A DNA stretch of 26,495 bases from an uncultured Clostridia bacterium (GTDB lineage Bacteria; Bacillota; Clostridia; Christensenellales; Aristaeellaceae): the NCBI GenBank assembly GCA_934647235.1, contig CAKUFG010000031.1:1-26495 (forward strand). Reading direction: 5' to 3'. The notes under the pieces were generated by a model. It was not told the origin of the DNA. It searched no databases and saw nothing but the letters and a program-made list of their open reading frames with translations. Shown one piece after another: positions 1 to 24,512 of the stretch. Position 1 is the stretch's first letter; each line of letters begins with the position of its first letter. A program made the translations under genes and the position numbers.

Positions 1-108
1 GCTCAATGAGGCAACGAGTATTTGAGCAATACCTTGCTCAAATACGACTATGCCGAATTGCGGACAAGGTGTCGAGCCGCAGCGAGACGGATGAGAGGGA
101 ATGCAGCA
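1..108 (+). repeat. Repeat module A (copy 1). Contains a 12-bp-stem palindrome GTATTTGAGCAA/TTGCTCAAATAC (18-45) and the motif GGTGTCGAGC..GAGACGGATGAG.GGGAA. It is the inverted partner of 12324-12432.
   Basis: The reverse complement of 12324-12432 aligns base for base with 1-108, with about eight differences counted by eye. The window edge may truncate the copy. Confidence 0.85.
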
Positions 109-139
109 CGTTGCGTATGCTGGAAATGGCGGCCAACCA

Positions 140-460
140 AAGCCTTCTCCTCAAGGAGAAGCCTTTTGGTGGCCGTTCTATCCAACTATTGCGAGCTGTC
201 ACGCATGATTTATATGTCCAACAAATGCCCCTGCGGCACGCCGATGCAATCGGCGCGGGCTGGTGCAGCCAGACCATAGGGGAAAAAGGCAGAAACGCAC
301 GGATGGAGCTTGCTCCAGGCCGGGCGGTTCAAGTTTTTCCCTGCCGCAGAGGGATGACCAGGGATACACCCAATTTAACCCAATAGGCTTTCATGGCCAC
401 AACGCAGGTTCTTTGGTACTTTCTTGGCTCAAGAAAGTACCGTCTCCCCTCGTTTCTCCC
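140..460 (+). repeat. Composite hairpin-rich element B (copy 1)
   Basis: Colinear by eye with 12891-13230 (same strand) and 8598-9033 (opposite strand). Contains hairpins at 144-161, 239-255 and 305-316, and a terminal palindrome GGTACTTTCTTG/CAAGAAAGTACC at 415-441. Confidence 0.8.
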
Positions 461-513
461 CCGTAACCCCCGTCCCCCTGTTCCCCCCTTCCCCTACAGA
501 AAGGAGTCATCCC

Positions 514-873
514 ATGCCTGATCTTACCCCGCAGCTGCGCAAGCTGCTGCAAGCGATCATCCCCTGTGCGCAGGGGCAGTATCCCGCGCAGGAGGCGGCG
601 TTTCCCTGCGCGGTGATATACGAAAGCGGCAACGCCGTGCAGGCGCGCTGCGACGGCCGCGCCCATCTGCACGCGCTTGAATATACCGTTGAAATCTGGG
701 CCTTTTCTCTGGGCGAAGCCCACGCCCTGTCCGTGCGCGCGGACGAAGCCCTGGCAAGCCTGGGACTGAGCCGCAGCGCCTGCACCGACCTGTACGATGA
801 AGACCTGCGCGTCCATCGCCGCGTGATGCGCTACCGCGCGCTGTGCGATGAAAGCGGCGTGCTGACCCAGTAA
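514..873 (+). CDS. Phage tail terminator / tail-completion protein (DUF3168-like)
   Basis: ATG at 514 lies 7 nt after AAAGGAG, an internal start within track ORF 424..873. The ~119-aa size, the position directly upstream of the major tail protein and the sequence pattern resemble DUF3168-type proteins. Confidence 0.6.
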   Translation: MPDLTPQLRKLLQAIIPCAQGQYPAQEAAFPCAVIYESGNAVQARCDGRAHLHALEYTVEIWAFSLGEAHALSVRADEALASLGLSRSACTDLYDEDLRVHRRVMRYRALCDESGVLTQ

Positions 874-893
874 CAATAAAAGGAGGAATTTTT

Positions 894-1307
894 ATGGCCA
901 CCAAAAGCCTTGGCACCACCTTTGCCTTTACGCCCGCAGGCGGCTCGGCCGCCAAAATCGGCCAGCTCTCCGCCATCAGCGAGCTTAACTGCGACAGCGA
1001 GCTGATCGACGTGACCACCCTGAGCGAGCAGAGCGGCTGCCGCCGGTTTATCCAGGGCGCGCGCGACGCGGGCGAAATCCGCCTGACGGGCTTCCATCTG
1101 AAAACCGACGCGGGTCAGGCCGCCCTGCGCTCCGCCTATGAAAGCGGCAAGGCAGGCACGGCGCGCATCGATTTTCCCGACGGCGCGGCCTATACCTTTC
1201 CCGCCCTGGTCAAAAGCTGCTCGCTGGGCGCGGCGCAGGTGGACGGCGCAATCGGCTTTGGCTGTGTGCTGCGCGTGAACGGCGCGGTGGAAAGCGTGAC
1301 CGCCTGA
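894..1307 (+). CDS. Phage major tail protein (TP901-1/phi13-like small MTP)
   Basis: AAGGAGG RBS. The 137-aa protein shows the typical pattern (GTTFAF..., ELIDVTTL..., FIQGARDAGEI) and lies in the position ahead of the chaperone gene. Confidence 0.75.
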   Translation: MATKSLGTTFAFTPAGGSAAKIGQLSAISELNCDSELIDVTTLSEQSGCRRFIQGARDAGEIRLTGFHLKTDAGQAALRSAYESGKAGTARIDFPDGAAYTFPALVKSCSLGAAQVDGAIGFGCVLRVNGAVESVTA

Positions 1308-1816
1308 TGCCTGTCTATGTGGAGATTGCAGGCCGCGCCTACCCCCTGCGCTTTACGCTGCGCGGGGCGCTGCGGCTGCTGGAGCTGACGGGCCAGACGC
1401 CCATGGAGCTGCTGACCCCCGGCCTTCGCAATACCGCGCTGCTGCTCTACGCCGCGCTGTGCGACGGCTGCCCGCACGTTACCCTGTCCCAGGCCGCCGC
1501 GCTGTGCGCTGCCGCCGCCAAGGAGCGAGACACGCTGTCCCGCCTGCTCAGCGCCCTGGCGCTGGCGCTGTCCGAGAGCGGGTTGGATCAGGCCCGGCTG
1601 GATCGGGATACCCTGCGCCGCCTGCTGCGCGCCGCCCGGCGCGCGGGCTATCCGCAGCCGCTTGCGCTGCTGGACGCTACCTATTGCGAGCTGTGCGAGG
1701 CGCTGGAGGACTTTCTGGGCCGCTGCAGCACGGCTCCTGCTGTCCCCATGACCGATCGCCAGATGCAGGGCGTGATGCGCGCCCTGGCGGAAAGGAGCAA
1801 GCATGACCACCCTTGA
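1307..1816 (+). CDS. Tail assembly chaperone (gpG-position protein)
   Basis: The start overlaps the MTP stop (TGATG). It lies between the MTP and the tape-measure-position gene, and the protein is helical and Ala/Leu-rich. No convincing slippery site was seen. Confidence 0.5.
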   Translation: MPVYVEIAGRAYPLRFTLRGALRLLELTGQTPMELLTPGLRNTALLLYAALCDGCPHVTLSQAAALCAAAAKERDTLSRLLSALALALSESGLDQARLDRDTLRRLLRAARRAGYPQPLALLDATYCELCEALEDFLGRCSTAPAVPMTDRQMQGVMRALAERSKHDHP

Positions 1817-2222
1817 TACGCTGTGCGTCCGCCTGGAAGCGGAGGCCGGCAGTTTGTTTCAGGATCTGGATACGCTGGAAGACCGTCTGACCGCCCTGCG
1901 CGGGCAGAGCGGCCAGCGCGTTTCCCTGCCGGCCGAGCTGGAAATGCGCCTGAGCGTCACCGCCGACGAGGCCATCGCCGGCGCGCTGCGCGGGGCGGGC
2001 GATACGCTGTCCGCCGCCGTGCAGGGGCACGATGTGCAGCTGGGCGGCGCGCTGGCCGAGGCGCAGCAAGCCATGGCCGCCGCGCTGCAAAGCGCGGTCA
2101 ATAAGCTCAGCGCGTCCCTGAACGTGACCGTGCCCGTGTATATTGACAGCACGCGCGTAGCCAACGCCGTCGTCAATCAGGTGCGCCGCCGGTTGGTATC
2201 CGGCGGGCGCAGCCTGGCTTAA
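1803..2222 (+). CDS. Tape-measure-position protein, only 139 aa (mini-TMP candidate)
   Basis: It has its own RBS (AAAGGAG 7 nt upstream of the ATG). The protein is a low-complexity Ala/Leu/Gln-rich predicted helix ending in VPVYIDSTRVANAVVNQV. It occupies the syntenic slot between the chaperone and the Dit-position gene. Confidence 0.45.
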   Translation: MTTLDTLCVRLEAEAGSLFQDLDTLEDRLTALRGQSGQRVSLPAELEMRLSVTADEAIAGALRGAGDTLSAAVQGHDVQLGGALAEAQQAMAAALQSAVNKLSASLNVTVPVYIDSTRVANAVVNQVRRRLVSGGRSLA

Positions 2223-2236
2223 AGGAGGGATGCGCA

Positions 2237-2593
2237 ATGGCGATGCTGACCTTAAACGGCGCCGCGCTGCCTGATCCCTCCGCCCTGAGCGTGGAATTGC
2301 AGGATGCGCTTTTATCCGCCCGGCGCACGCTGTCGGGCGCGGCCAGCGTGTCCCGCGCCGCCGTCAAGCGCCGCGTGCGCTGCTTTTGGGCGTATATGCC
2401 CGCGGCGCAGCTGGCCGCCATGCTCTCGGCCCTGGCGGGCAGCGCAGTAACGACGCTGTCCTATCCCGATCCGCTGACCGGCCAAAGCCGCGCCATGCAG
2501 GCCTATTGCGGCGAGCGCAGCGTGGGCCTTGCCCGGCAAAGCGGCGGCGAGACGGTGTGGACGGGCGTTGAAATCATCTTTATGGAGGCATGA
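2237..2593 (+). CDS. Small distal-tail-position protein (Dit N-domain-like, 118 aa)
   Basis: AAAGGAGG RBS, position immediately upstream of the Tal-like gene, and a stop that overlaps the next start (ATGA). Confidence 0.4.
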   Translation: MAMLTLNGAALPDPSALSVELQDALLSARRTLSGAASVSRAAVKRRVRCFWAYMPAAQLAAMLSALAGSAVTTLSYPDPLTGQSRAMQAYCGERSVGLARQSGGETVWTGVEIIFMEA

Positions 2594-5499
2594 GCATGGA
2601 TTACCAAACCGCCATTTCAGCCGCCTGCCGCACGCTGACCGCGCGGGGAAGCCTGACGCTGACGACGGGCTATACCTACGCGCTGGCGGCAGACGATATC
2701 CTGTCCTTCCGGTTTGAGGAGGGCGTGCAGGGCGGCGATATGCTGCTGGGCGGCGCGGTGGGCGCGCATGGGCAGCTGACGCTGGCCAGCCCTGCGGGCG
2801 CATGGCTGCCGGGCGGCGGCAGGCTTGGCACACGCACGCTGAACGGCGCAATTGCAGCGCTGGAAATCGGCGTGCTGGCCGGGGATGAAACGCTGTATCA
2901 GCCCTGCGGACGCTTTATCGTCAGCCGCATTGAAAGCGGCGAGGGGCAGGACAGCGTTACCCTGTCGGGCTATGACGAGATGGTGCACACCCTGGCCGCG
3001 CCCTTTACCGATGGGCTGACCTATCCGCAGCCGCTCAGCGCAGTGCTTGCGCACATCCTGGCGCAGTGCGATCTGCCCTATGATACGCTGCCGGACTGCA
3101 ACGGCGCGGTGAGCATCCCCGCCCGCCCCGATTGGGGCGAGGGCTGCACGCTGCGCCGGGCGCTGGGCATGGCCGCAGGAGCGATGGGCTGCTTTGCGCG
3201 CGTCACCCCGCAGGGCAGGATTCGCCTGCAAAGCGTGTGGCCTGCCAGCTTCCGCGCGCTGGCGGCGGGCAAATGCCTGTCGATGTCGCTGTCAAGCCTG
3301 GACTTTGCGCTCAACCGCGTGCGCGCCGTCAATAGCGGCAATGAAGAAACGCCCCTGGCCGAGGCCGCGCTCAACGCTGCGCTGCCTGCCGGGGCCAGCA
3401 ATACCCTGGAGCTCCGCGATAACGCGCTGCTGCGCGCAGGAAGCGCCCAAAGCCTGACAAGCGGCCTTCTTGCCGCCCTGAGCGGCATGACGGTCACGCC
3501 CTTTGAAGCGGATATTCCGGGCGACCCGACGCTGGAAATCGGCCAGCGTCTGCGCATTACCGATCTGCGCGGCGCGGCGCACGACAGCTGCGTGTTTGCC
3601 CGCACGCTCAGCTTTGGCCAGGATTTTACGGTGTCCCTGTCCTGCGATCCGGATACCTCAGGTGTCAGCCTGCCCCGCGCGCTGGCCGGCAGCGGACTGC
3701 TCAGCTCCGCCGCGCTGGGCGACGGCGTGGTCACGGCGCGCAACCTGGCCGTGGGCGCGGTGGACGCGGAGGCCATCAGCGCGCGCAGCATCACGGCGGA
3801 TAAGCTCGCCCTGGGCACGCTGACGGGCGAGAGCGGGGTGTTTGGCAGCCTGTCGGCCGATCTGATCACGGCAGGCAAGCTCAGCGCCGACCGGCTGATC
3901 ATCGGCGGCTCGGAGTTTTCCATCGTGCGCGCGCTCAACCAGCTGGCGCAGTCGCTGGCGGAGGCCGACACCCGCATCGACGGCGGCGTGCTGGCCGACC
4001 GCACGATCAGCGCCGTCAAGGTAACGGATGATTTCGGCGCGGGACTGGAGCTGTCCAGCAACCAGGCCATCCTGATGCTGGCGGGCAAGCTGGACGGCAC
4101 CAACAGCCACCTGGAGCTGACCCAGGACGCCATCAACATGGTGGGCGGCGACGTCAACATCGCCACGGACTCGCTGCAGATTCGCGGCGTTGATGCAGGC
4201 GACGAGCGCATGATCCTGGATCAGGAGGGTCTGAGCGCCCCGCGCGTGGTGGTGAAGGATCACTTTTCCGCGCCCAACGCCGTGCTCAGGCACCTGACCT
4301 CCGACGCGCCCTGGCAGGGCGGCATTCAATCCACCCTGGACGCGCTGCCCCGCTGCCTTACCAAGCCCGTTACCGTCGTTGTGCCTGCCGGAACCTACCT
4401 GGAAAGCGTGGTCGTTGCGGGCTTCTGGGGCGAGGCGCTTACGCTTGCCTTCACGCCGGGCGTATACCTGCGCGGCACGGTGGAAATCCGCCACTGCGGC
4501 GAAATCACGCTGGAGGCGGCGGCCCTGGGCGATGCGTGCATATATCCGCCCGTTCCGCAGCCTGCCCTGTCCGCCCGCGCCGTGCAGCGGCTGACGCTCA
4601 GAAACCTGTATATATCGGGCTATCGCGGGCGCTCCGCCGCCGCCGACGGCAGCGCGTACTGCGTGCAGGCCCTGGGCTGCAATACGGTGATCGAGGGCTG
4701 CGGGCTGGAGTATTCCGGCAGCGCCTGCCTGTACGCGGCGGGCGGCACGGCCAGCATGCGCGCCTGCCTGGGCGGCTGCACAGGCGATAACCCCGCCACC
4801 AACGCCAACCTGGGCTATGCCGCCTGCGGCGCGCAGGGCGCGCACATCGCGCTGGAGGATATCTACCCCCTGGCCTTTATCGCCCATTACTGCGGCAGCG
4901 GCATGGCCACCTACCGTGTGGGCACAGGCTGCGTGGGCACGGCGGGCGGCATGAGCGAGCCGGGCAGCGCGCGGGTGACACGCACCTTCCTGCCCAGCTT
5001 CCACTGCACCTATTCGGGCAGCAGCCGCAAGGCGTATCCCGACAACAAGGTGATCTGGCAGGGCGTGTACGGCCAGTACCGCGCGGGCTATAACGATTTC
5101 CATATCGGCACGCTGTGGTTCAACGAGGCCTCGGCCGCGCTGGCGGGCAAGACCATCCACCAGGCCACGCTGAGCCTGCGCCGCTCCAACGGCGGCTCTT
5201 CCGCCGCGCGCAATGTGTATCTGGGCTCCGTAGCCCTGCGCCAGGCGGACTGGGACACCACCTATCGCCCGGCCTTTACCGCGCCCACAGCGCTGCCCGC
5301 CTATCCGGCCGGCCAGCTCAAGCGCGAATGCGAGGGCGTGTACGACGTCACCAGCCTGATGCCCGCCGTGCAGCAGGGCTACGGCATCGGCGTATACGAG
5401 CCCTGCGCGGCCTACAGCGGCAGCTACTCGCCGCACTACACCATGTTCTACGCCCTGGGCAGCGATTTTGTGCCCGTGCTGACCGTTGCCTACAGCTGA
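2590..5499 (+). CDS. Tail-associated (Tal-like) protein fused to fibre and receptor-binding/depolymerase-like domains, 969 aa
   Basis: The N-terminal ~230 aa resemble prophage-tail/Tal hub domains (DILSFRFEEG..., CGRFIVSRIE...SVTLSGYDEM). The middle carries fibre-type repeats (AVDAEAISARSITADKLALGTL, ITAGKLSADRLIIGG). A Cys/Gly-periodic beta-helix-like segment follows. ATG 2596, 7 nt after GGAGG, may be the true start. Confidence 0.8.
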   Translation: MSMDYQTAISAACRTLTARGSLTLTTGYTYALAADDILSFRFEEGVQGGDMLLGGAVGAHGQLTLASPAGAWLPGGGRLGTRTLNGAIAALEIGVLAGDETLYQPCGRFIVSRIESGEGQDSVTLSGYDEMVHTLAAPFTDGLTYPQPLSAVLAHILAQCDLPYDTLPDCNGAVSIPARPDWGEGCTLRRALGMAAGAMGCFARVTPQGRIRLQSVWPASFRALAAGKCLSMSLSSLDFALNRVRAVNSGNEETPLAEAALNAALPAGASNTLELRDNALLRAGSAQSLTSGLLAALSGMTVTPFEADIPGDPTLEIGQRLRITDLRGAAHDSCVFARTLSFGQDFTVSLSCDPDTSGVSLPRALAGSGLLSSAALGDGVVTARNLAVGAVDAEAISARSITADKLALGTLTGESGVFGSLSADLITAGKLSADRLIIGGSEFSIVRALNQLAQSLAEADTRIDGGVLADRTISAVKVTDDFGAGLELSSNQAILMLAGKLDGTNSHLELTQDAINMVGGDVNIATDSLQIRGVDAGDERMILDQEGLSAPRVVVKDHFSAPNAVLRHLTSDAPWQGGIQSTLDALPRCLTKPVTVVVPAGTYLESVVVAGFWGEALTLAFTPGVYLRGTVEIRHCGEITLEAAALGDACIYPPVPQPALSARAVQRLTLRNLYISGYRGRSAAADGSAYCVQALGCNTVIEGCGLEYSGSACLYAAGGTASMRACLGGCTGDNPATNANLGYAACGAQGAHIALEDIYPLAFIAHYCGSGMATYRVGTGCVGTAGGMSEPGSARVTRTFLPSFHCTYSGSSRKAYPDNKVIWQGVYGQYRAGYNDFHIGTLWFNEASAALAGKTIHQATLSLRRSNGGSSAARNVYLGSVALRQADWDTTYRPAFTAPTALPAYPAGQLKRECEGVYDVTSLMPAVQQGYGIGVYEPCAAYSGSYSPHYTMFYALGSDFVPVLTVAYS

Positions 5500-5556
5500 G
5501 CATAGGATAAAACAGGGCGCGTGCGCCCTGCTCAGGGTGGGAAAGGAGCTTTTAAT

Positions 5557-5970
5557 ATGAATCATTTTTTCAAGGGCCTTGCCGGCGCGCTCAGCGCGGT
5601 GGGGGCGTATCTTGTGTATCTGCTGGGCGGCTGGGATGCGGCGCTGACGGTGATGTTTGTGCTGATGGGGCTGGACTACGCCACAGGCCTGCTGACGGCC
5701 TTCATGGGCAAAAGTCCCAAGACGCAGGGCGGTGGCTTCCGCTCCTCGGTAGCCTTTATCGGCATCAGCAAAAAGCTGATGATGGTGGCCATCGTGATGC
5801 TGGCCACGGCGCTGGACCGCCTGACGGGCGACAGCAGTATCTGCCGCAGCGCGGCCATTGGCTTTTACGCGGCCAACGAGGGCTTATCCATCATGGAAAA
5901 CGCCGCCGCGCTGGGCGTGCCGCTGCCCAAGGCGCTCAGGGACGTAATGGAGCGCCTGGACGAAAAATAA
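5557..5970 (+). CDS. Holin, toxin-secretion/phage-lysis (TcdE-like, Phage_holin_4_1) family
   Basis: GAAAGGAG RBS and three hydrophobic segments. Hallmark motifs are LMGLDYATGLL, GISKKLMM and NEGLSIMENAAALGVPLP. Confidence 0.9.
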   Translation: MNHFFKGLAGALSAVGAYLVYLLGGWDAALTVMFVLMGLDYATGLLTAFMGKSPKTQGGGFRSSVAFIGISKKLMMVAIVMLATALDRLTGDSSICRSAAIGFYAANEGLSIMENAAALGVPLPKALRDVMERLDEK

Positions 5971-7025: not shown

Positions 7026-8597
7026 ATGAATAAAAAGCCCGTTGTGCTTGTGGTCATGGACGGCGTGGGCAAGACCGATAAGGATCTTGGCAATATGGTG
7101 ATGCACGCCTACACCCCCACCCTGGACGAAATGATGAGCACCTGCCCCAACAATACCATCCAGGCGCACGGCACGGCCGTGGGTCTGCCCTCCGATGAGG
7201 ATATGGGCAACAGCGAGGTGGGCCACAACGCCCTGGGCTGCGGCCAGATCTACGCGCAGGGCGCAAAGCTGGTAAACGAATCCATCGAAAGCGGCAAGCT
7301 CTTTGAATCCGACACCTGGAAGGCCCTGACCAGCCGGTGCGTAGCCAATAAATCCACCCTGCACTTCATCGGCCTGCTGTCGGACGGCAACGTGCACAGC
7401 AACATCTCCCACCTCAAGGCGCTGATTGCCAACGCCAAGAAGCAGGGTGTGGCCAATGTGCGCGTGCACGCGCTGCTGGATGGCCGCGATGTGCCCGCCA
7501 CCTCCGCCCTGCAGTATGTGGATGATATCGAAGCCTTCATGGCCTCGCTCAACGACGATACCTTCCATGCCTGCATCGCCAGCGGCGGCGGCCGCATGAA
7601 GGTGACCATGGATCGCTATCAGGCCAACTGGCCCATGGTCAAGCTGGGCTGGGAAACCCATGTGCACGGCGTGGGCCGTCAGTTTGCCTCCGCCCGCGAC
7701 GCGGTGGAAACCTACCGCAACGAGGAAAACGTGATCGACCAGGATCTGCCCGCCTTCGTCATTGCCAAGGATGGCAAGCCCGTGGGCACCATCGAGGATG
7801 GCGACAGCGTGGTGCTGTTCAACTTCCGCGGCGACCGCGCGCTGGAAATCTCCATGGCCTTTGACGACGCCAGCTTTACCGCCTTCGACCGCGGCCGCGT
7901 GCCCGATGTGATGTTCGCCGGCATGCTGCAATACGATGGCGATCTGCACATCCCCACGAACTTCCTGGTAGCGCCTCCGGCCATCCACAATACCCTCAGC
8001 GAGCTGCTGGTGGGCGCGGGCATCGCGCAGTACGCCGTATCCGAAACCCAGAAATACGGCCATGTGACCTACTTCTGGAACGGCAACCGCAGCGAAAAGT
8101 TTGACGAGAACCTGGAAACCTTTGAAGAGGTGCCCTCCGACGTGCGCTCCTTTGACGAGGCGCCCTGGATGAAGGCTGCCGAAGTGACCGACAAGGTGAT
8201 CGCCGCCATCGAAAGCGGCAAGTACGGCTTCATCCGCTGCAACTATCCCAACGGCGACATGGTGGGCCACACCGGCAATATGGACGCCACCCGCCTGGCC
8301 GTTGAAAGCGTGGATCTGGAGCTGCGCCGCGTGTGGAACGCCTGCAAGGCGCACGGCTGCGTGCTGCTGGTAACTGCCGATCATGGCAACGCCGATGAAA
8401 TGCTGCAAAAGAATAAGAAGGGCGAATTGCAGCCCCGCACCGCGCATTCGCTCAATCCCGTACCCTTCATCATCTGCGACGACGAGCCCCATGCCCTCAA
8501 GGACGGCAAGTTCGGCCTGGCCAACGTCGCCCCCACCGTCGCCCAGCTGCTGGGCCTGACGCCCCCCGCCTGCTGGATGGAAGGCATGCTCAAGTAA
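7026..8597 (+). CDS. gpmI: 2,3-bisphosphoglycerate-independent phosphoglycerate mutase
   Basis: The N-terminus reads KPVVLVVMDGVGK, and GNSEVGHNALGCGQ and the metal-binding C-terminal motifs (GDMVGHTG, TADHGNAD) are present. The length is ~523 aa from ATG 7026. Confidence 0.95.
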   Translation: MNKKPVVLVVMDGVGKTDKDLGNMVMHAYTPTLDEMMSTCPNNTIQAHGTAVGLPSDEDMGNSEVGHNALGCGQIYAQGAKLVNESIESGKLFESDTWKALTSRCVANKSTLHFIGLLSDGNVHSNISHLKALIANAKKQGVANVRVHALLDGRDVPATSALQYVDDIEAFMASLNDDTFHACIASGGGRMKVTMDRYQANWPMVKLGWETHVHGVGRQFASARDAVETYRNEENVIDQDLPAFVIAKDGKPVGTIEDGDSVVLFNFRGDRALEISMAFDDASFTAFDRGRVPDVMFAGMLQYDGDLHIPTNFLVAPPAIHNTLSELLVGAGIAQYAVSETQKYGHVTYFWNGNRSEKFDENLETFEEVPSDVRSFDEAPWMKAAEVTDKVIAAIESGKYGFIRCNYPNGDMVGHTGNMDATRLAVESVDLELRRVWNACKAHGCVLLVTADHGNADEMLQKNKKGELQPRTAHSLNPVPFIICDDEPHALKDGKFGLANVAPTVAQLLGLTPPACWMEGMLK

Positions 8598-9033
8598 GGG
8601 AAGGACGAAGGAGACGAGGGGGAGACGGTACTTTCTTGAGTCATAGCGCCGCCGCAGGCGGCTGAGGGCGCGCAATTTTGCAAATTGCCGCCCGAAACCC
8701 GCGCTTGCCGTAAGGCAGCAGCGCGGGGCGTACAAGGAAAGTAACAAAGAACCTGTTTGCGACATAAAAGTCAGTTGACTAAAACTGGAAGGCAGCACTG
8801 CCGCTTGAGGCCCCCGTGGCAGGGAAATTTTTGAATCGCTCGGTTCGGAGTAAACTCCAGCCGAGCGATTCTTCATTTTTCCCATTTGGTCGTGCTGCGC
8901 ACACCCCGCGCCGATTGCATCGGCGTGCCACGGGGCGATGGTTACACATATTTGCCGTGAGTGTCTATTTGCGATTGTTAGATAGAGCGGCCAAGCTTCT
9001 TGAAAATTGCACAACCATAAAAGCCTTCTCCCA
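8598..9033 (-). repeat. Composite element B (copy 2, inverted), expanded by internal insertions
   Basis: The reverse complement is colinear with 140-460 and 12891-13230. It starts one nt after the gpmI stop. Its terminal palindrome arms are split (8627-8640 and 8733-8745) by a 92-nt hairpin-rich insert. Confidence 0.8.
8833..8880 (+). terminator. Strong hairpin plus T-run inside repeat B copy 2; a likely terminator for gpmI
   Basis: An 11-bp stem GAATCGCTCGG/CCGAGCGATTC encloses GGAG-TAAA-CTCC and is followed by TTCATTTTT. The opposite strand also carries a T-run after the stem, so it may act in both directions. Confidence 0.6.
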
Positions 9034-9290
9034 GATGTGGGAAGGTGTCGAGCGAACTGCAAGACGGATGAAGGGGAACACAACGAATTGCATATGCCGG
9101 AAAATGCAGCCAACCAAACACCTTCTCCTTGAGGAGAATGTGGACGCAGTGAAGCGGATGAGGTGTAGCTGCCGCAGCGGCGTTACCTTATATAGTTACG
9201 AAAACGGCCATTTCATGGCCTACACCTCATCCGAACGGCTAAAGCCGCCCACCTTCCCCTCCGAGGGGAAGGCGTTTGGTGGTATTGCCA
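9021..9290 (+). repeat. Array of short hairpin modules (CCTTCYCC-loop-GGRGAAGG followed by ..CGGATGAGG.. motifs)
   Basis: Segment 9043-9140 aligns with 67-165. The long-range stem GATGAGGTGTAG (9157-9168)/CTACACCTCATC (9220-9231) mirrors 12802-12813/12861-12872. A hairpin CCTTCCCCTC-CGA-GGGGAAGG lies at about 9252-9272. Confidence 0.8.
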
Positions 9291-9341
9291 ATACAGTAAT
9301 ATGGTCTCGCCGCTTACCAATCGCGCGCCTCTATCCGTTTT

Positions 9342-9557
9342 TTAATCCATTGCATCCGCCAGCGCATAGTCCTCGGCATAGAATACCGCGCAGACAATCA
9401 GGCACAGCTCGGGGCACAGGGCGATAGCATCCTCGCCTGCGCAGGCGAATAGAACGATGGACGCTTCAAAGGCATTCTCCGACTGCACGGGCACGCAGCC
9501 CGGCAGCAGCGCCGCCAGCAGTCCAATCAGCAGTCCGCGCTGCAGGGCTTTCGTCAC
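9342..9557 (-). CDS. Hypothetical small Cys-rich protein with a lipobox-like signal (LLPGC), 71 aa, GTG start
   Basis: The GTG overlaps the upstream reductase stop (GTGA). High GC3 matches neighbouring genes. The N-terminus KALQRGLLIGLLAALLPGC resembles a lipoprotein signal. There is no independent RBS, so translation would need coupling. Confidence 0.35.
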   Translation of the reverse strand: MTKALQRGLLIGLLAALLPGCVPVQSENAFEASIVLFACAGEDAIALCPELCLIVCAVFYAEDYALADAMD

Positions 9558-12292: not shown

Positions 12293-12323
12293 GCGAGGGG
12301 CGCACGCACCAGGATATACAGGC

Positions 12324-12432
12324 TGCTGCGTTCCCCCTCATCCGTCTCGCTGTATGCTCGACACCTTGTCCGCAATTCGGCATAGTCGTATTTGAGCAAA
12401 GCATTGCTCAAATACTCGTTGCCTCATTGAGC
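12324..12432 (-). repeat. Repeat module A (copy 2), inverted partner of 1-108
   Basis: See feature 1-108. The palindrome GTATTTGAGCAA-AGCA-TTGCTCAAATAC is retained with a different loop. Confidence 0.85.
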
Positions 12433-12469
12433 CTGCGCCCGCCCTATTCTGCCACAGGCAGGAGCGGTA

Positions 12470-12880
12470 CTCCGGCTCCCTCGGGAGAAGGCTTTCATAG
12501 CCGTGAACTTGTCAGCAAGCGTTCCGCAATAGCCATATCAGCAAGCTTGCAAATAAGGCTTCCCCTAGGGGGGAAGCTGGCGAATGAAATGAGCCTGATG
12601 AGGGGGCCAGTTACGCGGGAATTCAAGTAGAATTAATACGCTGCGTTCCCCCTCATCCGTCTCGCTGCGGCTCGACACCTTCTCCCGCTTGGGAGAAGGC
12701 TTTCATAGCCATGCTTTTGCTGAACTAAGCTTCGAAAAAGCGCTGCCGCATTGGCACAGCCTTCCCCTCGGAGGGGAAGGTGGCGAATGCAATGAGCCGG
12801 ATGAGGTGTAGGCGCCGCAGCGGCGTTATTTTTTAGGGCTATGATAACGGCTGCTTCGCAGCCTACACCTCACCACCGCC
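12470..12880 (+). repeat. Two direct ~140-nt units (~205-nt period) plus long-range GATGAGG/CCTCATC stems
   Basis: Segment 12470-12610 aligns with 12675-12815: hairpin ..GGGAGAAGG, then CTTTCATAGCC, a variable stretch, hairpin GCCTTCCCCT.GG.GGGGAAG, then TGGCGAATG.AATGAGCC.GATGAGG. Stems pair 12597-12606 with 12648-12657 and 12802-12813 with 12861-12872. Confidence 0.8.
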
Positions 12881-12890
12881 TACGGCGGAG

Positions 12891-13230
12891 CCTCTCCTCA
12901 AGGAGAAGCCTTTTGGTAAACGCGCTCTCCAACTATTGCTAACTGCTGCGCAGTGGTTCCGCAACCACTCAACGCCCCCGTGGCACGCTGATCGCAGATC
13001 AGCGCGGGCTGGCGAAGCCAGGCCAAGGGGGAAAGCAGGAAGCGAACGGAGGAAAGCTTGCTTTCATCCGGGCGGTTCAGGCTTTCACCTGCCACGGGGG
13101 CGGGCGGCAGGCGGGCGGCAGTGCCGCCTTCCAGTTTTATCAGCTTGACTTTTACGTCGCACGCAGCTTTCTTTGGTACTTTCTTGGGCTCCAAGAAAGT
13201 ACCGTATCCCCTCGTATTCCCTCGTCTGCC
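12891..13230 (+). repeat. Composite element B (copy 3)
   Basis: Colinear with 140-460. Hairpins lie at 12986-13004 and 13052-13065, with a 13-bp terminal palindrome GGTACTTTCTTGG/CCAAGAAAGTACC at 13175-13203. Confidence 0.8.
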
Positions 13231-13336
13231 AAAATTTATCAAAATCTGTAAATCGCTGCAACAAATGCCGCGCCTGTCTCGTCTATATAAGTAGACGGCG
13301 CAGCGGCGCATCTTGCACACAGAGAGGTGACAGGCA

Positions 13337-13726
13337 ATGAAAAGCGTAAAGCCCGGTCGCGGGCCCTCCTTCATGAACGGTATCGGCTATGCAGCGGCGG
13401 CCGTGTTCGGCATATTCTGGATGATCCTGGCCGGCGGCATGGGCGCGCCGGGGCTGTTTGTGGCCTTTGGCGCAATCTTCGTGCTGATGGCCGTCGCCGG
13501 GGCGATCTACCAGTTTTCCAACGCCACGCGCAAAAACCGCTTTTCCGCCTTTGATATCACCGATCAGCAGGAGGAGCCGGACGAGCTGAACCAGTACTTT
13601 GGCAAGGACGGCGCGGGCTACATGCCCGAAAAGCACACACCCGCCGCGCGCTACTGCCCCTACTGCGGCGAGGAGCTGCACGAGGACTATCGCTTCTGCC
13701 CCAAGTGCGGGAGCGAGCTGAAGTAA
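13337..13726 (+). CDS. Membrane protein with a C-terminal zinc-ribbon (CPYCG...CPKCG)
   Basis: GAGGTGA RBS, two hydrophobic helices, an acidic linker and a CxxC-x11-CxxC zinc ribbon at the C-terminus. Confidence 0.7.
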   Translation: MKSVKPGRGPSFMNGIGYAAAAVFGIFWMILAGGMGAPGLFVAFGAIFVLMAVAGAIYQFSNATRKNRFSAFDITDQQEEPDELNQYFGKDGAGYMPEKHTPAARYCPYCGEELHEDYRFCPKCGSELK

Positions 13727-17735: not shown

Positions 17736-19676
17736 ATGAGCACCCTGGATCGCCTGCCGGCGCTGCCCCTGATCGTAAACGATCCTTATTTTTCGGTGTG
17801 GATGCCCGCCGATATCCTGACCGCCGCCAACACCATGCACTGGACCGGCGCGCCCAAGCCCATTGTGGGCCAGCTGATTGTGGACGGCAAGCCCTATACC
17901 TACCTGGGCCGCAACAAATACCCCGCCATGGAAACGCGCGCGCTGCGCGTCACCCCCACGCACACTATCAGCACGCTGACGGCCGGCGGCGTGGAGCTGA
18001 CCGCAGCCTTCTGGTCGCCCGCGCTGCCCGACGATCTGGACGCGCTGTCCACGCCCATCACCTTTGTGGATTACGCCCTGCGCGCCATCGACGGGCAGGA
18101 GCACGACGTGACCCTGCGGCTGTCCGCCTCCGACGCGCTGTGCTATGACGGCGCGGTGCCGCCCGCCATGTACTCGGATCATTACGATCGCGAGGGCCTG
18201 CACATTGCCTATATAGGCCAGCAGCAGCAGCGCGTGCTGGGGCACTCGGGCGATCATGTCACCATCGATTGGGGCTATCTCTATATGGCCGCGCCTGCGG
18301 GCGAAGCAGCGCTGGACGCGCGCTCCAGCCTGCGCTATCAGCAGGATTTCCGCCTGGATGAAAAAACGCAGTCCGCCTACGTGATGCTGGGCTACGACGA
18401 TATCGCCGCCGTCAACTACTTTGGCGTGTGCTGCCGCGCGTGGTATCAGCGCGCCGGGCAGACGCTGCCCGACGCTTTGTGCCGCTTTGCCGCGCGCCAT
18501 GATGCGCTGCAGGCCGCCTGCCGCGCGCTGGATGAAGCCGTGCTGGCCGACGCTGTGCGCATCGGCGGCGAGGATTACCGGCTGATCGTATCCGCCGCCT
18601 GGCGGCACACCCTGGGCGCGCACAAGCTGATTGCCACGCCCAAGGGCGAAATGGCCCTGCTGTCCAAGGAAAACGACAGCAACGGCTGCATCGGCACGGT
18701 GGACGTAAGCTATCCCTCCACGCCGCTCTTCCTGAAATACTGCCCCGAGCTGGTCAACGCCTTGTGCCGTCCGGTGCTGGAATTTGCCCAAACGCCCGTG
18801 TGGGGCAAGGATTTTGCGCCCCACGATGTAGGCCGCTATCCCTACGCCACCGGCCAGGTATACGGCGCGCCGCGTCTGCGCGCGGGCGTAACCCCGCCGC
18901 CGTACTATCTGTACCCGGCGGACAGCGGGGTGTACGATCCGCGCATGCAGATGCCGGTAGAGGAGTGCGGCAACATGCTGATCATGCTGGAGGCCGCCAT
19001 GACGCGCGGCGCGTCCGAGCAGCTGCTGTTTGACTACGCGCCCACGCTGGAAAAATGGGTGCGCTATCTGGACGAGTACGGCGAGGATCCCGGCGATCAG
19101 CTGTGCACGGATGATTTCGCCGGGCACCTGGCACGCAATATTAACCTGTCCGCCAAGGCGATTGTGGGCATTGCCTGCTATGCGCGCATGATGCGCCGCC
19201 TCAGCCGTGAGGAGGAGGCCGCCCGCTGGGAGGCGCGCGCCCATGAGATGGCCGCCGGCTGGCTGCGCCGCGCGCAGGCCGGCGATCATACAGCGCTCAC
19301 CTTTGACGGCGCAGGCTGGAGCATGAAGTACAACCTGGTGTGGGATCTGGTGCTGGGTCTGGAGCTGCTGCCGCGCGATTTCTACCGCGCCGAGACGCGC
19401 AGCTATCTGCCGCGCATCGCCGCCTACGGCCTGCCGCTGGACTCCCGCGCGGATTACACCAAGAGCGACTGGATTCTCTGGACTGCGGCCATGGCGCAGG
19501 ATACAGAGACCTTTACCGCCCTGATCGCCCCCGTGGCGCGCTATCTGCGCGAAACGACCACGCGCGTGCCCTTCTCCGACTGGTACGACGCCAGGACTGG
19601 CCGCTATGTGGAGTTTATCGCCCGCAGCGTGCAGGGCGGCGTGTTCATGCCCATCCTGGCAGGGTGGGGGGAATAA
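17736..19676 (+). CDS. Glutaminase-A-like protein (DUF5127/DUF4965/DUF1793 architecture); a putative glycoside-hydrolase-like enzyme
   Basis: AAAGGAG RBS. The N-terminal PLIVNDPYFSVW motif and the ~646-aa length fit the family, as does the (alpha/alpha)6-like C-terminal half (YDPRMQMPVEECGNMLIM, DDFAGHL). Confidence 0.7.
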   Translation: MSTLDRLPALPLIVNDPYFSVWMPADILTAANTMHWTGAPKPIVGQLIVDGKPYTYLGRNKYPAMETRALRVTPTHTISTLTAGGVELTAAFWSPALPDDLDALSTPITFVDYALRAIDGQEHDVTLRLSASDALCYDGAVPPAMYSDHYDREGLHIAYIGQQQQRVLGHSGDHVTIDWGYLYMAAPAGEAALDARSSLRYQQDFRLDEKTQSAYVMLGYDDIAAVNYFGVCCRAWYQRAGQTLPDALCRFAARHDALQAACRALDEAVLADAVRIGGEDYRLIVSAAWRHTLGAHKLIATPKGEMALLSKENDSNGCIGTVDVSYPSTPLFLKYCPELVNALCRPVLEFAQTPVWGKDFAPHDVGRYPYATGQVYGAPRLRAGVTPPPYYLYPADSGVYDPRMQMPVEECGNMLIMLEAAMTRGASEQLLFDYAPTLEKWVRYLDEYGEDPGDQLCTDDFAGHLARNINLSAKAIVGIACYARMMRRLSREEEAARWEARAHEMAAGWLRRAQAGDHTALTFDGAGWSMKYNLVWDLVLGLELLPRDFYRAETRSYLPRIAAYGLPLDSRADYTKSDWILWTAAMAQDTETFTALIAPVARYLRETTTRVPFSDWYDARTGRYVEFIARSVQGGVFMPILAGWGE

Positions 19677-19719: not shown

Positions 19720-19756
19720 AATCGCCCGGATTGGAGCCTGCTCCGTCCGGGCGATT
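19720..19756. terminator. Bidirectional terminator between convergent genes
   Basis: An 11-bp stem AATCGCCCGGA/TCCGGGCGATT is flanked by an A-run upstream and T-rich sequence downstream. Confidence 0.75.
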
Positions 19757-19817
19757 TGCTATGAATTATAATATGCGAAAAGGCTTTGCCATCTCACCCG
19801 ATGCAGGGATGACGCGG

Positions 19818-23652: not shown

Positions 23653-23673
23653 CGCGGCACGCCACGCAAAAAA

Positions 23674-23704
23674 AGCCGGGCTGAATACGCGCTGCAGCCC
23701 GGCT
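23674..23704. terminator. Bidirectional terminator between the AraC gene and spo0A
   Basis: A 10-bp stem AGCCGGGCTG/CAGCCCGGCT is preceded by AAAAAAA and followed by TTT. Confidence 0.75.
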
Positions 23705-23732
23705 TTCATGCGATCTGTTATTCTGTTTATTC

Positions 23733-24512
23733 TCAGGCGGTATGCTGCTTTTCCATGCCCAGCTTATCGGCAATCAGCGCGATAAACTCGCCGTTGGTGG
23801 GCTTATCCTCCGGAATGGCCACGCGGCAGCCGAACGCGCGGTTCAGCGATTCCACGCGCCCGCGGCTCCAGGCCACCTCGATGGCGTGGCGGATGGCGCG
23901 CTCCACCTTGCTGGGGCTGGTGGCATAGCGCCGGGCGATGCTGGGGTACAGCTCCTTGGTGATACGGTTGATGCGGTCAGGCTGCTCGATAACCAGGCGC
24001 ACGCCCTCGCGCAGAAACTGATAGCCCTTGATATGCGCCGGGATGCCCAGCGACAGAAAGATATTGCTCATGCGGTCGTCCACATTAGGCACCACCGCCT
24101 GCTGCACCTCGGGCGGATCCTCGCAGATACCCTCCATCTGCCGGGCGGTATCGCGGATGCGGTCCATCAGCTGACGCATTTCCACGGGCTTGACCATGTA
24201 GTAGGTAACGCCGAACCGCAGCGCGCGGGCGATAAAATCCTCGCGTCCCAGCGCGGTCAGGGCAATCACACGCGGACGCTGCTCCAGGGGAATCCGCTGC
24301 AATTGCTCCAGCACGCCGAAGCCGTCCAGCTGCGGCATGATCATATCCAGTATCATCACGTCCGTGGGACACTCGGACAGCCGCTGCAGCGCCTCCACGC
24401 CGTTGGCCGCCTCGCCGGAAATGACCATATCCTCTTGCGTTTCCAGATATCTGTGAAGCGCCGCACGTATTTCGTCATTATCGTCCGTAAGGAATATGCG
24501 AATCTTTTCCAT
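23733..24512 (-). CDS. spo0A: Sporulation master regulator Spo0A
   Basis: GGAGGG RBS before ATG 24512. A receiver domain (FLTDDNDEIR, DVMILDMIMPQLDG) is followed by the diagnostic Spo0A C-terminal helix SKVERAIRHAIEVAW. Confidence 0.95.
   Translation of the reverse strand: MEKIRIFLTDDNDEIRAALHRYLETQEDMVISGEAANGVEALQRLSECPTDVMILDMIMPQLDGFGVLEQLQRIPLEQRPRVIALTALGREDFIARALRFGVTYYMVKPVEMRQLMDRIRDTARQMEGICEDPPEVQQAVVPNVDDRMSNIFLSLGIPAHIKGYQFLREGVRLVIEQPDRINRITKELYPSIARRYATSPSKVERAIRHAIEVAWSRGRVESLNRAFGCRVAIPEDKPTNGEFIALIADKLGMEKQHTA

Follow-up and report, generated by a model that had tools for sequence, protein, structure and literature searches.

The window analysed here, a stretch of 26,495 nucleotides from an uncultured human-gut Clostridiales/Eubacteriales bacterium, harbours three copies of a hairpin-rich element, at positions 144-494 (copy 1, plus strand), 12890-13230 (copy 2, plus strand) and 8598-9045 (copy 3, minus strand). 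The colinearity of these copies had been proposed in an earlier note on this DNA and was borne out by alignment over ~330 nt as well as by nhmmer, which, with copy 2 as the query, gave E-values of 7e-36 for copy 1 and 3e-21 for copy 3. The contig carries a fourth copy, in inverted orientation, immediately to the left of the window (positions 9013-9350 of locus L190). The 3' arm motif AAGAAAGNANCGT occurs five times in the window, where 0.13 occurrences are expected, and the contig that includes the window has six ends of the terminal hairpin P7 in 36.5 kb. Several further repeat modules occupy the intergenic regions around the copies, and repeat modules constitute roughly 8% of the window.

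Architecture of the copies and neighbouring modules

From 5' to 3', a unit comprises a terminator-like head, a P1 junction that encloses the hairpins P2, P3 and the long P4, a variable hairpin P5, the terminal hairpin P7 and a (YCCCYCGT)n tail. Copy 2 runs from head hairpin to C/T-rich tail on the plus strand, and its minimum free energy fold recovers all helices. The head (12890-12914) is a hairpin, GCCTCTCC-TCAA-GGAGAAGC, followed by CTTTT, and reads as terminator-like; it precedes a CCAACTATTGC box (12929-12939), recognizable as the conserved block CCAACTATCGC. P1 pairs CCCCGTGGCA (12976-12985) with TGCCACGGGG (13090-13099), a long-range helix that the earlier note had missed and that is compensated in copy 1 as CCCCTGCGGCA/TGCCGCAGAGG. 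P2 (12986-13004), CGCTGATC-GCA-GATCAGCG, is closed by a GNA triloop, and P3 (13009-13021), CTGGC-GAA-GCCAG, includes GCGAAGC, a mini-hairpin DNA motif (PMC13037366). P4 (13029-13089) is a long imperfect hairpin that contains helices 4-6 and bears GAAAG-CTTG-CTTTC at its tip (13052-13065). The variable P5 (13114-13128), GGCGGC-AGT-GCCGCC, has GTGGCC/GGCCAC as its other allele; only 33 of the 61 copies show it as a clear hairpin. P7 (13175-13203), GGTACTTTCTTGG-GCT-CCAAGAAAGTACC, has a loop of varying length among copies and is followed by the C/T-rich tail ATCCCCTCGTATTCCCTCGTCTGCC (13206-13230), which in the strain variant L142 is longer by one 8-nt unit.

Copy 1 forms one arm of a head-to-head pair with the copy left of the window. 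It contains a head (144-161), a box (182-192), P1 (228-238/342-352), P2 (239-255), P3 (260-272), P4 (279-341), P7 (416-442) and a tail (445-494), and the ribosome-binding site (RBS) and ATG of a phage tail-completion gene follow at 503-516. The earlier note had called the element mosaic and had regarded the segment of copy 1 between P4 and P7 as replaced; the mosaic structure holds, but copy 1 carries the same P5/linker segment there in the form of a diverged allele. Copy 3, on the minus strand, is composed of a variant head (9024-9045), P1 (8926-8935/8812-8821), P2 (8909-8925), P3 (8891-8903), P4 (8822-8883), P5 (8791-8802), the two P7 arms (8733-8745 and 8627-8638) and a tail (8598-8624) that is flush with the stop codon of the iPGM gene (8595-8597). 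Its greater length is due to a 92-nt three-hairpin module (8641-8732, minus strand) nested in the loop of the P7 hairpin; the same module occurs at 9392-9482 of L190 and is cleanly absent from L192. The CTTCTCC-TCAA-GGAGAAG-type head that had been ascribed to copy 3 as well is in fact a separate hairpin farther upstream, TTCTCC-TCAA-GGAGAA (9123-9138, minus strand), the copy itself starting with its variant hairpin. All other hairpins listed in the earlier note (239-255, 8909-8925, 12986-13004, 305-316, 13052-13065 and 8847-8858) were recovered, as were the terminal palindromes.

Additional modules surround the copies. A head-type hairpin without a body, CCACCTTCCCCTCCGAGGGGAAGGC, lies at 9249-9273 and has a perfect inverted match at 12759-12783, and a companion module of 84 nt with 14-nt inverted ends, GATGAGGTGTAG..CTACACCTCATC, is found at 9146-9229 (plus strand) and again at 12789-12872. 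A block of other repeat modules extends from the flotillin stop codon to copy 2 (12296-12889) and is missing in its entirety from the orthologous intergenic region of strain L142. A lone P4-like hairpin, AATCGCCCGGA..TCCGGGCGATT (19723-19759, plus strand; E=4e-6), is located ~45 nt past the stop codon at 19676. The inverted repeats detected in the window are those between different copies. A hammerhead ribozyme was considered for the CTGATGAGG module and dismissed, as the core is incomplete and Rfam gives no match.

Conserved pairing and the nature of the folded strand

Covariation was assessed in 62 non-redundant family members and 59 pairs of seven helices. Across these copies, 91.6% of the cells are paired, compared with 84.0% in shuffles and 38-45% in slid controls. 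Changes on both sides affect 25 of the 59 pairs and 231 cells, values reached by none of 500 shuffles, and the slid controls show 6-11 such pairs. The fold is conserved and backed by covariation, and the claim of the earlier note that stems are kept by compensatory change is thus upheld. P1 (helix 1) is 93% and P2 (helix 2) 96% paired, each with five pairs changed on both sides, and P7 (helix 7) is 99.3% paired. Each hairpin exists as a few discrete alleles, which are recombined between copies while pairing is kept: P3 (helix 3) occurs as UA/GC and GC/UA at a ratio of 40:20, and P7 shows UA (38), GC (16) and AU (8) at position 348/464, AU (42) and UA (18) at 350/462, and GC (34) and CG (23) at 358/454.

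The commonest loop at the P4 tip is CUUG (48 of 62 copies), and the earlier note had taken this G-CUUG-C tetraloop as a hint of selection at the RNA level. That suggestion found no support. Mismatches within helices are G.T in 27 and A.C in 32 cases and show no asymmetry, both strands fold equally well (copy 2 yields z = -6.5 and -5.6 against shuffles, one value per strand), and copies occur in both orientations relative to the transcription of neighbouring genes. There is no sigma-70-like promoter on either strand of the element, and a single GTDB species representative carries the family. Moreover, the loops favour DNA: P2 ends in GNA in 54 of 62 copies and P3 in 56 of 61; the full GCGNAGC motif (C-GNA-G) is present in 54 of the 61 P3 hairpins, where N is represented by all four bases. 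The GCGNAGC mini-hairpin is far more stable as DNA than as RNA (PMC13037366, PMC3201870), and GNA and GCGNAGC loops are found at single-strand initiation sites (PMC13037366). Because of these loops, single-stranded DNA is the more likely folded form; together with the equal numbers of G.T and A.C mismatches, they point, at the level of sequence, to single-stranded DNA rather than RNA. The argument for single-stranded DNA is based on loop motifs, which provide a concrete, testable lead to folded single-stranded DNA as the active form.

A family of stand-alone, trans-acting structured RNA genes (sRNAs or large non-coding RNAs) could account for the strong covariation, the stable fold and the prevalence of the CUUG tip, and a C-rich tail could pair with Shine-Dalgarno sequences. 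We nevertheless consider such a gene family highly improbable, given that the element has neither a promoter nor a 3'-end terminator (no U-tract follows P7 on either strand), that the mismatches carry no strand signal, that truncated and fold-back forms are found among the mosaic copies, which probably number in the hundreds, and that the family is absent outside one species-level lineage and matches no Rfam family. The head hairpin of copy 1 was flagged as terminator-like on either strand, as was the one at 9138-9123; its tract is only TTTT, and terminator-like heads are no commoner than such matches in shuffles.

Host range, position and turnover

At least 26 distinct copies are present in 96 kb of loci from the related metagenome-assembled genome (MAG) SFIM01, and at least 120 contigs from human-gut metagenomes contain the family. 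A genome probably carries hundreds of copies. Copies occur only in intergenic positions; in some loci nearly every intergenic region is occupied by a unit, and L090 yields eight matches in 14 kb. Among 185,579 GTDB species representatives the element was found in a single one. A scan of this collection with the P2 pattern returned 57 stretches, of which 43, all outside MAG SFIM01, were discarded as single chance matches; nearly all of these stem from GC-rich non-Clostridia genomes, and the only matches in other Clostridia (L025 and L043) both lie inside coding sequence. Searches with blastn in plasmid and phage collections gave no match, and the sole match in a viral contig, L068, is orthologous to the phage-like cluster of the window and does not show that a phage carries the element. 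Nothing relevant was retrieved from the literature by topic, MAG name or sequence strings.

At the gathering score, Rfam gave no match anywhere in the window, and scanning the three copies by E-value returned only inconsistent chance matches (e.g., lncRNA, miRNA and SECIS_5), in agreement with the earlier note, which could not assign the element to an RNA family. No tRNA or tmRNA was found. The description of a non-coding, multi-copy, mosaic composite is likewise supported: no reading frame is conserved or open in most copies, and Pfam gives no match for the 203-aa ORF predicted across copy 3. In ~0.9 Mb around the elements, the multi-copy ORFs among 733 predicted genes belong to ordinary paralogue families only, and tblastn with IS200 TnpA and E. 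coli RAYT as approximate queries gave nothing at E<1. These loci harbour no copy split by an ORF that could represent an autonomous version, no apparent reverse transcriptase or Rep/HUH gene and no integrase.

The position of the units follows strict rules. Neighbouring copies are arranged head-to-head, that is, tails out, in 34 of 34 pairs, and every copy ends with a 12-13 bp hairpin and a C/T-rich (YCCCYCGT)n tail of variable length. The tails abut the neighbour's stop codon, reverse terminator, -35 box or RBS. Gene 3' ends are preferred (82 versus 38), and in 16 of the 38 co-directional cases nothing but an RBS separates tail and start codon, and therefore the unit must be in the 5' UTR. 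A T-box or riboswitch leader was rejected for the family, as copies are also oriented towards the 3' ends of convergent genes. Simple selfish insertion explains neither the tails-out rule nor the flush tails.

These rules bear on a reading according to which the units are mainly host-selected, cis-acting RNA modules of untranslated regions, their repetition being secondary to function. P7 and tail would then protect or terminate the neighbour's mRNA, and the heads would be bidirectional terminators; on the plus transcript the C-rich tail could load Rho, and in the opposite direction its G-rich complement, along with the hairpin, could stabilize the 3' end of a convergent gene. In accordance with such a role, the tail is rut-like (C 55%, G 8%), P7 and tail are kept in 13 of 13 partial copies from SFIM01 loci and always face the gene boundary, units occur in 5' UTRs, and in L175 the native terminator has been replaced by the element. 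P7 hairpin and tail also persist at the orthologous site of copy 1 and L068 across a split of ~92% nucleotide identity, which would fit host-selected function too. Yet one and the same unit would need to function in both transcription orientations, there is no excess of G.U over A.C, P7 lacks a following U-tract on either strand, and the content turns over rapidly among near-identical strains. Considering, in addition, the DNA-favouring GNA/GCGNAGC loops (PMC13037366) and the very narrow host range, we regard this reading as unlikely, albeit one to be taken seriously.

The turnover is rapid and involves indels, allele swaps, gain or loss of tail units, and insertion or loss of whole modules. 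Orthologous intergenic regions of strains with 98-100% identical flanks differ by 90-650 nt. The region measures 1072 nt in the window and 424 nt in L142, which also shows a P5 allele swap and the longer tail, and L103 and L109 differ similarly (372 versus 992 nt); across the L089 series, a tail indel of 15 nt and an indel of 88 nt are combined in all four possible ways. A 91-nt companion module is present in some loci and cleanly missing from others whose flanks are identical, with no target duplication. Rearrangement breakpoints coincide with these intergenic regions, and the locus of copy 3 is rearranged in L147, which was therefore set aside as an empty-site control. No orthologous intergenic region was found to be free of the element altogether and to differ solely by a clean whole-unit insertion.

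The partial copies also call to mind a replicative element anchored at its 3' end and copied from the tail, either by SINE-like target-primed reverse transcription or by HUH rolling-circle replication of the Helitron/IS91 kind that stops at P7. Such an element would yield 5'-truncated copies with variable simple-repeat tails, and the partial copies do retain their 3' end while 5' loss varies (model starts at 85, 136-140, 160, 206, 212, 230, 252 and 282). The ends are dissimilar and lack terminal inverted repeats, the simple-repeat tail of variable length follows directly on the subterminal hairpin, and in L081/L103 a nested, heavily shortened "AAGTACCGT + tail" sits behind a duplicated CCTTACTCG. 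However, truncated copies show no target-site duplication, the loci contain no apparent reverse transcriptase or Rep/HUH gene, and numerous "truncations" can be traced to deletion between short direct repeats (for example ACGCAGCCTT) or represent symmetric fold-back forms. Tail length shifts in place between strains, and therefore slippage is a sufficient explanation. We consider 3'-anchored replication of this type decidedly doubtful.

The earlier note had also compared the element to a MITE, which is loosely apt for a small, non-coding, multi-copy sequence with subterminal hairpins at both ends. The comparison goes little further: the ends differ from each other (head hairpin and P7 plus tail are unrelated in sequence, and no terminal inverted repeats were seen), neither defined termini nor target-site duplications were observed at the junctions compared between strains, and no autonomous partner was found in the ~0.9 Mb around the elements. 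In its behaviour, the element is closer to a mosaic repeat of the BIME/REP or BOX kind than to a MITE. Descent from a known IS family as a classical MITE (TIR-type or IS200/IS605 palindrome-associated) could draw on the 91-nt companion module, whose clean insertion is in the style of IS200/IS605, and recent pseudogene duplication, which the earlier note had raised against its own proposal, on the scarcity of stop codons on the plus strand of the element. Against the former, no conserved tetranucleotide precedes the hairpins or the head, the sequence upstream of the heads is not conserved, and the loci contain neither an ORF-split copy nor, with the approximate queries used, a Y1 homologue. The latter is contradicted by copy lengths that are evenly spread modulo 3 (14, 17 and 18), by the lack of a conserved frame and by the ORF of copy 3, which has no Pfam match. 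Both origins are very improbable indeed.

Interpretation and relation to known repeat systems

The sequences described here probably, if not assuredly, represent an undescribed, lineage-specific family of BIME/REP-like extragenic, hairpin-rich mosaic repeats, from whose modules the element is assembled in one ordered combination. Its behaviour is that of the REP/BIME-type extragenic repeats of E. coli and not that of a stand-alone RNA gene or a classical transposon. The family would have been spread and homogenized at the DNA level, through trans-mobilization of a non-autonomous element, gene conversion between copies, or both. The stems may be kept because the strand with the C-rich tail must fold, and the fold is presumably recognized by a protein of the host or of the element. 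The units would be co-transcribed with their neighbours and would therefore also act in cis: P7 is always placed beside a gene end, the palindromic head in the middle of a pair resembles a bidirectional terminator, and the element appears to have taken the place of the native 3' UTR and terminator at one locus or more.

A bolder proposal, which we hold to be quite unlikely, is that copies are produced by a new end-anchored mechanism acting on folded single-stranded DNA. With the P7 hairpin as its starting or finishing point, copying would add the (YCCCYCGT)n repeats and place the tail directly at the neighbour's first functional base, thereby replacing native terminators and 3' UTRs. If true, most longer intergenic regions would have been rebuilt from a standard structured cassette that provides termination and mRNA-end functions, and the mechanism would amount to a new HUH- or primase-linked system or to a bacterial equivalent of SINE- or Helitron-like elements. 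If the family is only a selfish repeat, it adds one more family of a known kind. The density of repeats is very high for a bacterium and has consequences for the binning and annotation of this common gut lineage: many assemblies break inside the element, which gives rise to spurious ORF calls, and rearrangement breakpoints add to these effects.

Among known systems, IS200/IS605-derived elements, attC sites and ssi/sso origins share with the element dissimilar ends, the lack of target duplication and a need for hairpins of one strand, and IS200 starts with a terminator-like hairpin. In contrast to these systems, the loci yielded no TnpA, RAYT, integrase or Rep, the two end hairpins are dissimilar, there is no conserved target tetranucleotide, and no link to a plasmid or phage origin exists. 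Correia elements of Neisseria and ERIC/IRU sequences are likewise intergenic, co-transcribed and hairpin-forming, with possible terminator or promoter activity. Yet Correia elements have terminal inverted repeats and a TA duplication, and ERIC is a single long imperfect palindrome, neither of which applies here.

BOX elements of Streptococcus pneumoniae (boxA-boxB(n)-boxC), along with RUP and SPRITE, are modular, non-coding, intergenic sequences of ~100-300 nt from a Firmicutes host, which encode no transposase, are predicted to adopt stable folds and vary in the number of internal or terminal units. They show no sequence similarity to the element, their variable unit is the 45-nt boxB rather than a tail repeat of 8-10 nt, and the strict tails-out arrangement is foreign to BOX elements. 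REPINs, i.e., REP doublets mobilized by RAYTs, resemble the head-to-head pairs in that two inverted units sharing an intergenic region could fold into one very long hairpin. The arms of the pairs, however, are dissimilar and rank among the least similar family members (rank 26-84 of about 85), and therefore the doublet is not the replicating unit; a REPIN-like doublet in this role was rejected accordingly.

The closest parallel is provided by the BIME/REP sequences of E. coli and other Proteobacteria, which are associated with mRNA 3'-end effects and rearrangements. These repeats are extragenic, occur in hundreds of copies whose stems are kept by compensatory change, combine hairpin units of alternating orientation with short motifs into mosaics, and are co-transcribed from positions after stop codons and between the genes of operons. 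The present family, too, consists of extragenic, highly repeated imperfect palindromes in mosaic clusters of alternating orientation, and it shares with BIMEs the mosaic modules, the inverted pairs, the preference for gene 3' ends and the coincidence with breakpoints. It differs from them in the size of the unit (~260-330 nt with 6-7 helices versus a palindrome of 20-40 nt), in the pyrimidine minisatellite tail flush with gene boundaries, in the lack of a GTAG-type head and of a RAYT gene in the loci, and in its Clostridiales host. The tails-out rule, the flush tails and the apparent replacement of native terminators go beyond the known biology of REP, BIME, BOX and Correia elements.

The repeat unit and the covariation of its stems

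The three colinear copies recognised in the earlier note, copies 1, 2 and 3 at 144-494 (+), 12890-13230 (+) and 8598-9045 (-) of the window, align over approximately 330 nt (alignment A1), and nhmmer with copy 2 as query retrieves copies 1 and 3 with E-values of 7e-36 and 3e-21. The same contig carries a fourth copy, in inverted orientation, immediately left of the window (locus L190, 9013-9350). The hairpins listed in that note are present where it placed them, with two corrections: copy 3 starts with a variant head hairpin (9024-9045), and the head of the CTTCTCC-TCAA-GGAGAAG type is a second one nearby (9123-9138). A long-range helix was overlooked, which pairs CCCCGTGGCA with TGCCACGGGG and is compensated in copy 1 (CCCCTGCGGCA/TGCCGCAGAGG).

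The + orientation is defined as the strand with the C-rich tail, and the layout of the unit was derived from alignments A2 and A3 together with folds. The 5' end is formed by the head, a terminator-like hairpin of at least three sequence types followed by CTTTT, and then by a box (CCAACTATCGC). A 10-bp helix (P1) encloses the hairpins P2 (7-8 bp) and P3 (5-7 bp) and the long imperfect hairpin P4; the variable P5 (clearly hairpin-forming in just 33 of 61) is separated by a linker from P7, an A/T-rich hairpin of 12-13 bp that is followed by an invariant CGT and a pyrimidine-rich tail (median 33 nt, range 2-99). Tails consist of 55% C, 32% T, 8% G and 5% A, with CGT spaced every 8-10 nt. Four or more tracts of at least three C occur in 44 of 137 tails, and thus the complementary strand could form G-quadruplexes. 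One tail of 95 nt, in locus L114, harbours a 25-nt tandem duplication (TCACCCCGTTCCATCGTTCCCTCGT twice), which points to growth of tails by slippage or duplication.

On either strand the predicted fold of copy 2 is much more stable than those of dinucleotide shuffles (z -6.5 and -5.6), and the central claim of the earlier note, that stems are kept by compensatory changes, stands. In a hand-drawn structure of 59 pairs, scored over 62 copies of less than 95% mutual identity, 91.6% of cells are paired (shuffles 84.0%, slid controls 38-45%), 25 pairs are changed on both sides (shuffles 15.4, with 0 of 500 reaching 25; slid controls 6-11), as are 231 cells (shuffles 68.6, slid controls 14-37). P3 reads CTGGC/GCCAG in 40 copies and CGTGC/GCACG in 20, while the P7 pairs are U-A (38), G-C (16) or A-U (8) at position 348/464, A-U (42) or U-A (18) at 350/462, and G-C (34) or C-G (23) at 358/454. 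Since this covariation consists of a few discrete alleles common to many copies, independent events are far fewer than cells. The few alleles of each hairpin are combined freely between copies (A2, A3). The segment of copy 1 that had been called replaced represents the same segment in a diverged allelic form (A3).

Protein, transposon, RNA or folded DNA

A protein-coding function was rejected, as unit lengths are evenly spread modulo 3 and, in line with the earlier note, no frame is conserved. The + strand is stop-poor, the longest open frame exceeding 90% of unit length in 49% of copies and in 13% of shuffles; a pseudogene origin is very improbable. Long open reading frames cross the units at 8816-9427 (+), 12898-13374 (-) and 6-386 (+) and are probably spurious; the 203-aa frame called over copy 3 has no match in Pfam.

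The description as MITE-like holds only loosely, for a multi-copy, non-coding mosaic, and fails for a classical MITE with terminal inverted repeats, as the two ends are unrelated and target duplications were not seen; such an element is highly unlikely. The loci yielded no autonomous partner: no copy is split by an open reading frame, and neither a multi-copy open reading frame nor a homologue of the Y1/RAYT transposases envisaged in the earlier note was found.

Selection at the RNA level, hinted at in that note, was not supported. In well-aligned helices G.T and A.C mismatches are equally common (27 and 32), and therefore give no sign of one transcribed strand; copies occur in both orientations relative to adjoining genes, neither strand of the element carries a sigma-70-like promoter, and no Rfam family matches the repeat. 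The CUUG loop at the tip of P4, taken earlier as a hint of RNA, is real (48 of 62 copies) but not decisive; a stand-alone RNA gene has very little probability. On the + strand the loops are G-N-A triloops in P2 (54/62) and P3 (56/61), with all four bases at N, and P3 bears GCGNAGC (54/61 copies). The sequence is known as the “mini-hairpin DNA” motif, whose RNA counterparts have considerably lower stability and which is found at sites of protein action on single-stranded DNA in folded form (PMC13037366); its stability depends on the closing pair (PMC3201870). The loop motifs are a lead, not proof, that the strand with the C-rich tail folds as single-stranded DNA, which is the more likely folded form. 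The repeat probably spreads and is homogenised at the DNA level, and the stems are probably kept because one strand must fold.

Position, turnover and neighbouring modules

All units are located between genes. In a survey of 137 flank-dereplicated P7 ends, 82 point towards the 3' end of a convergent gene, where the tail runs to the stop codon (51 ends) or only the gene's own reverse terminator intervenes (25 ends). Another 38 face a co-directional start; in 16 of these the ribosome-binding site is the sole intervening feature (25 nt or less), and at several others the tail abuts the -35 box. The tail of copy 3 ends at 8598, flush with the iPGM stop codon (8595-8597). Two units sharing an intergenic region are head-to-head in 34 of 34 cases, never in tandem or tail-to-tail, often with one palindromic head common to both that lies between an A-tract and a T-tract; the arms of a pair are among the least similar family members, which argues that pairs are not copied as a unit. 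In locus L175 (1-85), from a related species, a tail begins directly after a stop codon. At the orthologous site of the window (23653-23735) two convergent genes are separated by an ordinary spacer of 30 nt and a bidirectional terminator, and thus the native 3' region was replaced in L175. The stop and penultimate codons also differ between window and L175 (TGA vs TAA; T vs S).

Simple selfish insertion does not account for the tails-out rule, for flush tails or for the replacement of terminators, which would also be compatible with a UTR or terminator function selected in the host or with end-anchored copying. Units are necessarily co-transcribed with their neighbours and probably affect these transcripts in cis; a primarily functional cis-RNA cassette is unlikely. 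Less likely still is a 3'-anchored replicative element; the partial copies in the loci of SFIM01, a related MAG of a Clostridiales bacterium, in 13 of 13 cases retain P7 with the tail and are missing 5' parts.

Turnover was followed in orthologous intergenic regions of strains with 98-100% identical flanks. Between flanking-gene matches the window has 1072 nt and locus L142 424 nt; in the latter the module block 12296-12889 is missing in its entirety, as is the head, P5 is of another allele, 22 nt are deleted and the tail is longer by one 8-nt unit. At another site, 372 nt comprising two 3' halves with a fold-back join (L103) correspond to 992 nt with two full units and central modules (L109). 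The L089 series shows every one of the four combinations of two indels, one of 88 nt delimited by the direct repeat ACGCAGCCTT and one of 15 nt in the tail. L190 (9392-9482) has a 91-92 nt module made of three successive G+C-rich hairpins, which locus L192 (9480-9490) cleanly lacks, with identical flanks and no target duplication at the junction (A4); a 92-nt copy nested in the P7 loop of copy 3 (8641-8732) makes up the extra length of that copy. This module appears independently mobile or precisely excisable.

Other modules occupy the intergenic regions 1-140, 9042-9290 and 12296-12889. Module 1-77 is 97% complementary to 12356-12432, one family (..CCCTCATCCGTCTCGCTGCGGCTCGACACC..) recurs at 62-107, 9042-9100, 12309-12367 and 12640-12685, and two copies of an 84-nt module bounded by 14-nt inverted ends occupy 9146-9229 and 12789-12872. 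Head-type hairpins that lack a body are found at 9249-9273, ~12476-12497, 12554-12580, 12680-12706 and 12759-12783. A lone hairpin close to the P4 module (AATCGCCCGGA..TCCGGGCGATT) at 19723-19759, ~45 nt past the stop codon at 19676, has the appearance of a terminator for the gene ending there, which suggests that modules and ordinary terminators are related.

Rearrangement breakpoints between close relatives coincide with repeat-carrying intergenic regions. Compared to the window (12293 and 17632), loci L147 (4486-4850) and L049 (1-190) have the hydrolase-to-YjeF block inverted beside the flotillin gene, and in L192 an unrelated locus immediately upstream of copy 1 takes the place of the head genes of a phage-like cluster seen in L190. 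This compact cluster (window 514-5970 and, upstream on the same contig, L190 3075-9012) encodes terminase, SPP1-type portal, capsid, connector, tail completion and tail tube proteins, a protein of 967-969 aa and a holin, with no integrase or replication genes in view. Sporulation genes (YpeB, SleB-like) and iPGM flank the cluster, and repeat units sit in the terminase/portal gap (L190 ~5013) and at the junction of the head and tail modules. Possible identities of the cluster are a defective prophage and a gene-transfer-agent-like particle.

Distribution and relation to known repeats

The window is contained in the human-gut metagenome contig ERZ27287376 k141_11930. When one GTDB genome per species was scanned with a P2-hairpin pattern, many matches occurred only in “Clostridiales bacterium W1P21.023” (SFIM01), whose syntenic genes are ~92% identical to those of the window. 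The remaining hits were dismissed as isolated chance matches, nearly all of them in GC-rich genomes outside the Clostridia; other Clostridia account for just two, both within coding sequence. The 96 kb examined of SFIM01 hold 26 distinct copies besides partial ones, and as the pattern matches 9 of 46 independent copies, its 14 genome-wide matches imply ~70 full copies in this fragmented MAG. The window's own contig has 6 terminal-hairpin ends in 36.5 kb, corresponding to several hundred per genome if this contig is representative. A metagenome scan with the terminal-hairpin pattern yielded at least 120 contigs, all from gut samples among the matches listed; plasmid and phage collections gave no match to the family. 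Many assemblies stop within a unit, and the repeat breaks short-read assemblies. Most metagenome contigs with the 129-aa zinc-ribbon gene (L002-L010) stop 160-480 nt upstream, inside copy 2.

The best fit, which we regard as reasonably probable, is a BIME/REP-like mosaic, specific to the lineage and made of hairpin modules whose commonest arrangement is the 330-nt composite. The repeat is abundant in a common gut lineage, and its properties are odd and testable, yet nothing so far shows a new mechanism. No described family matches and the literature searched holds no description of the repeat, while extragenic mosaic palindromic repeats are well known as a kind; compared to these, the size of the unit, the minisatellite tail and the positional rules are new here.
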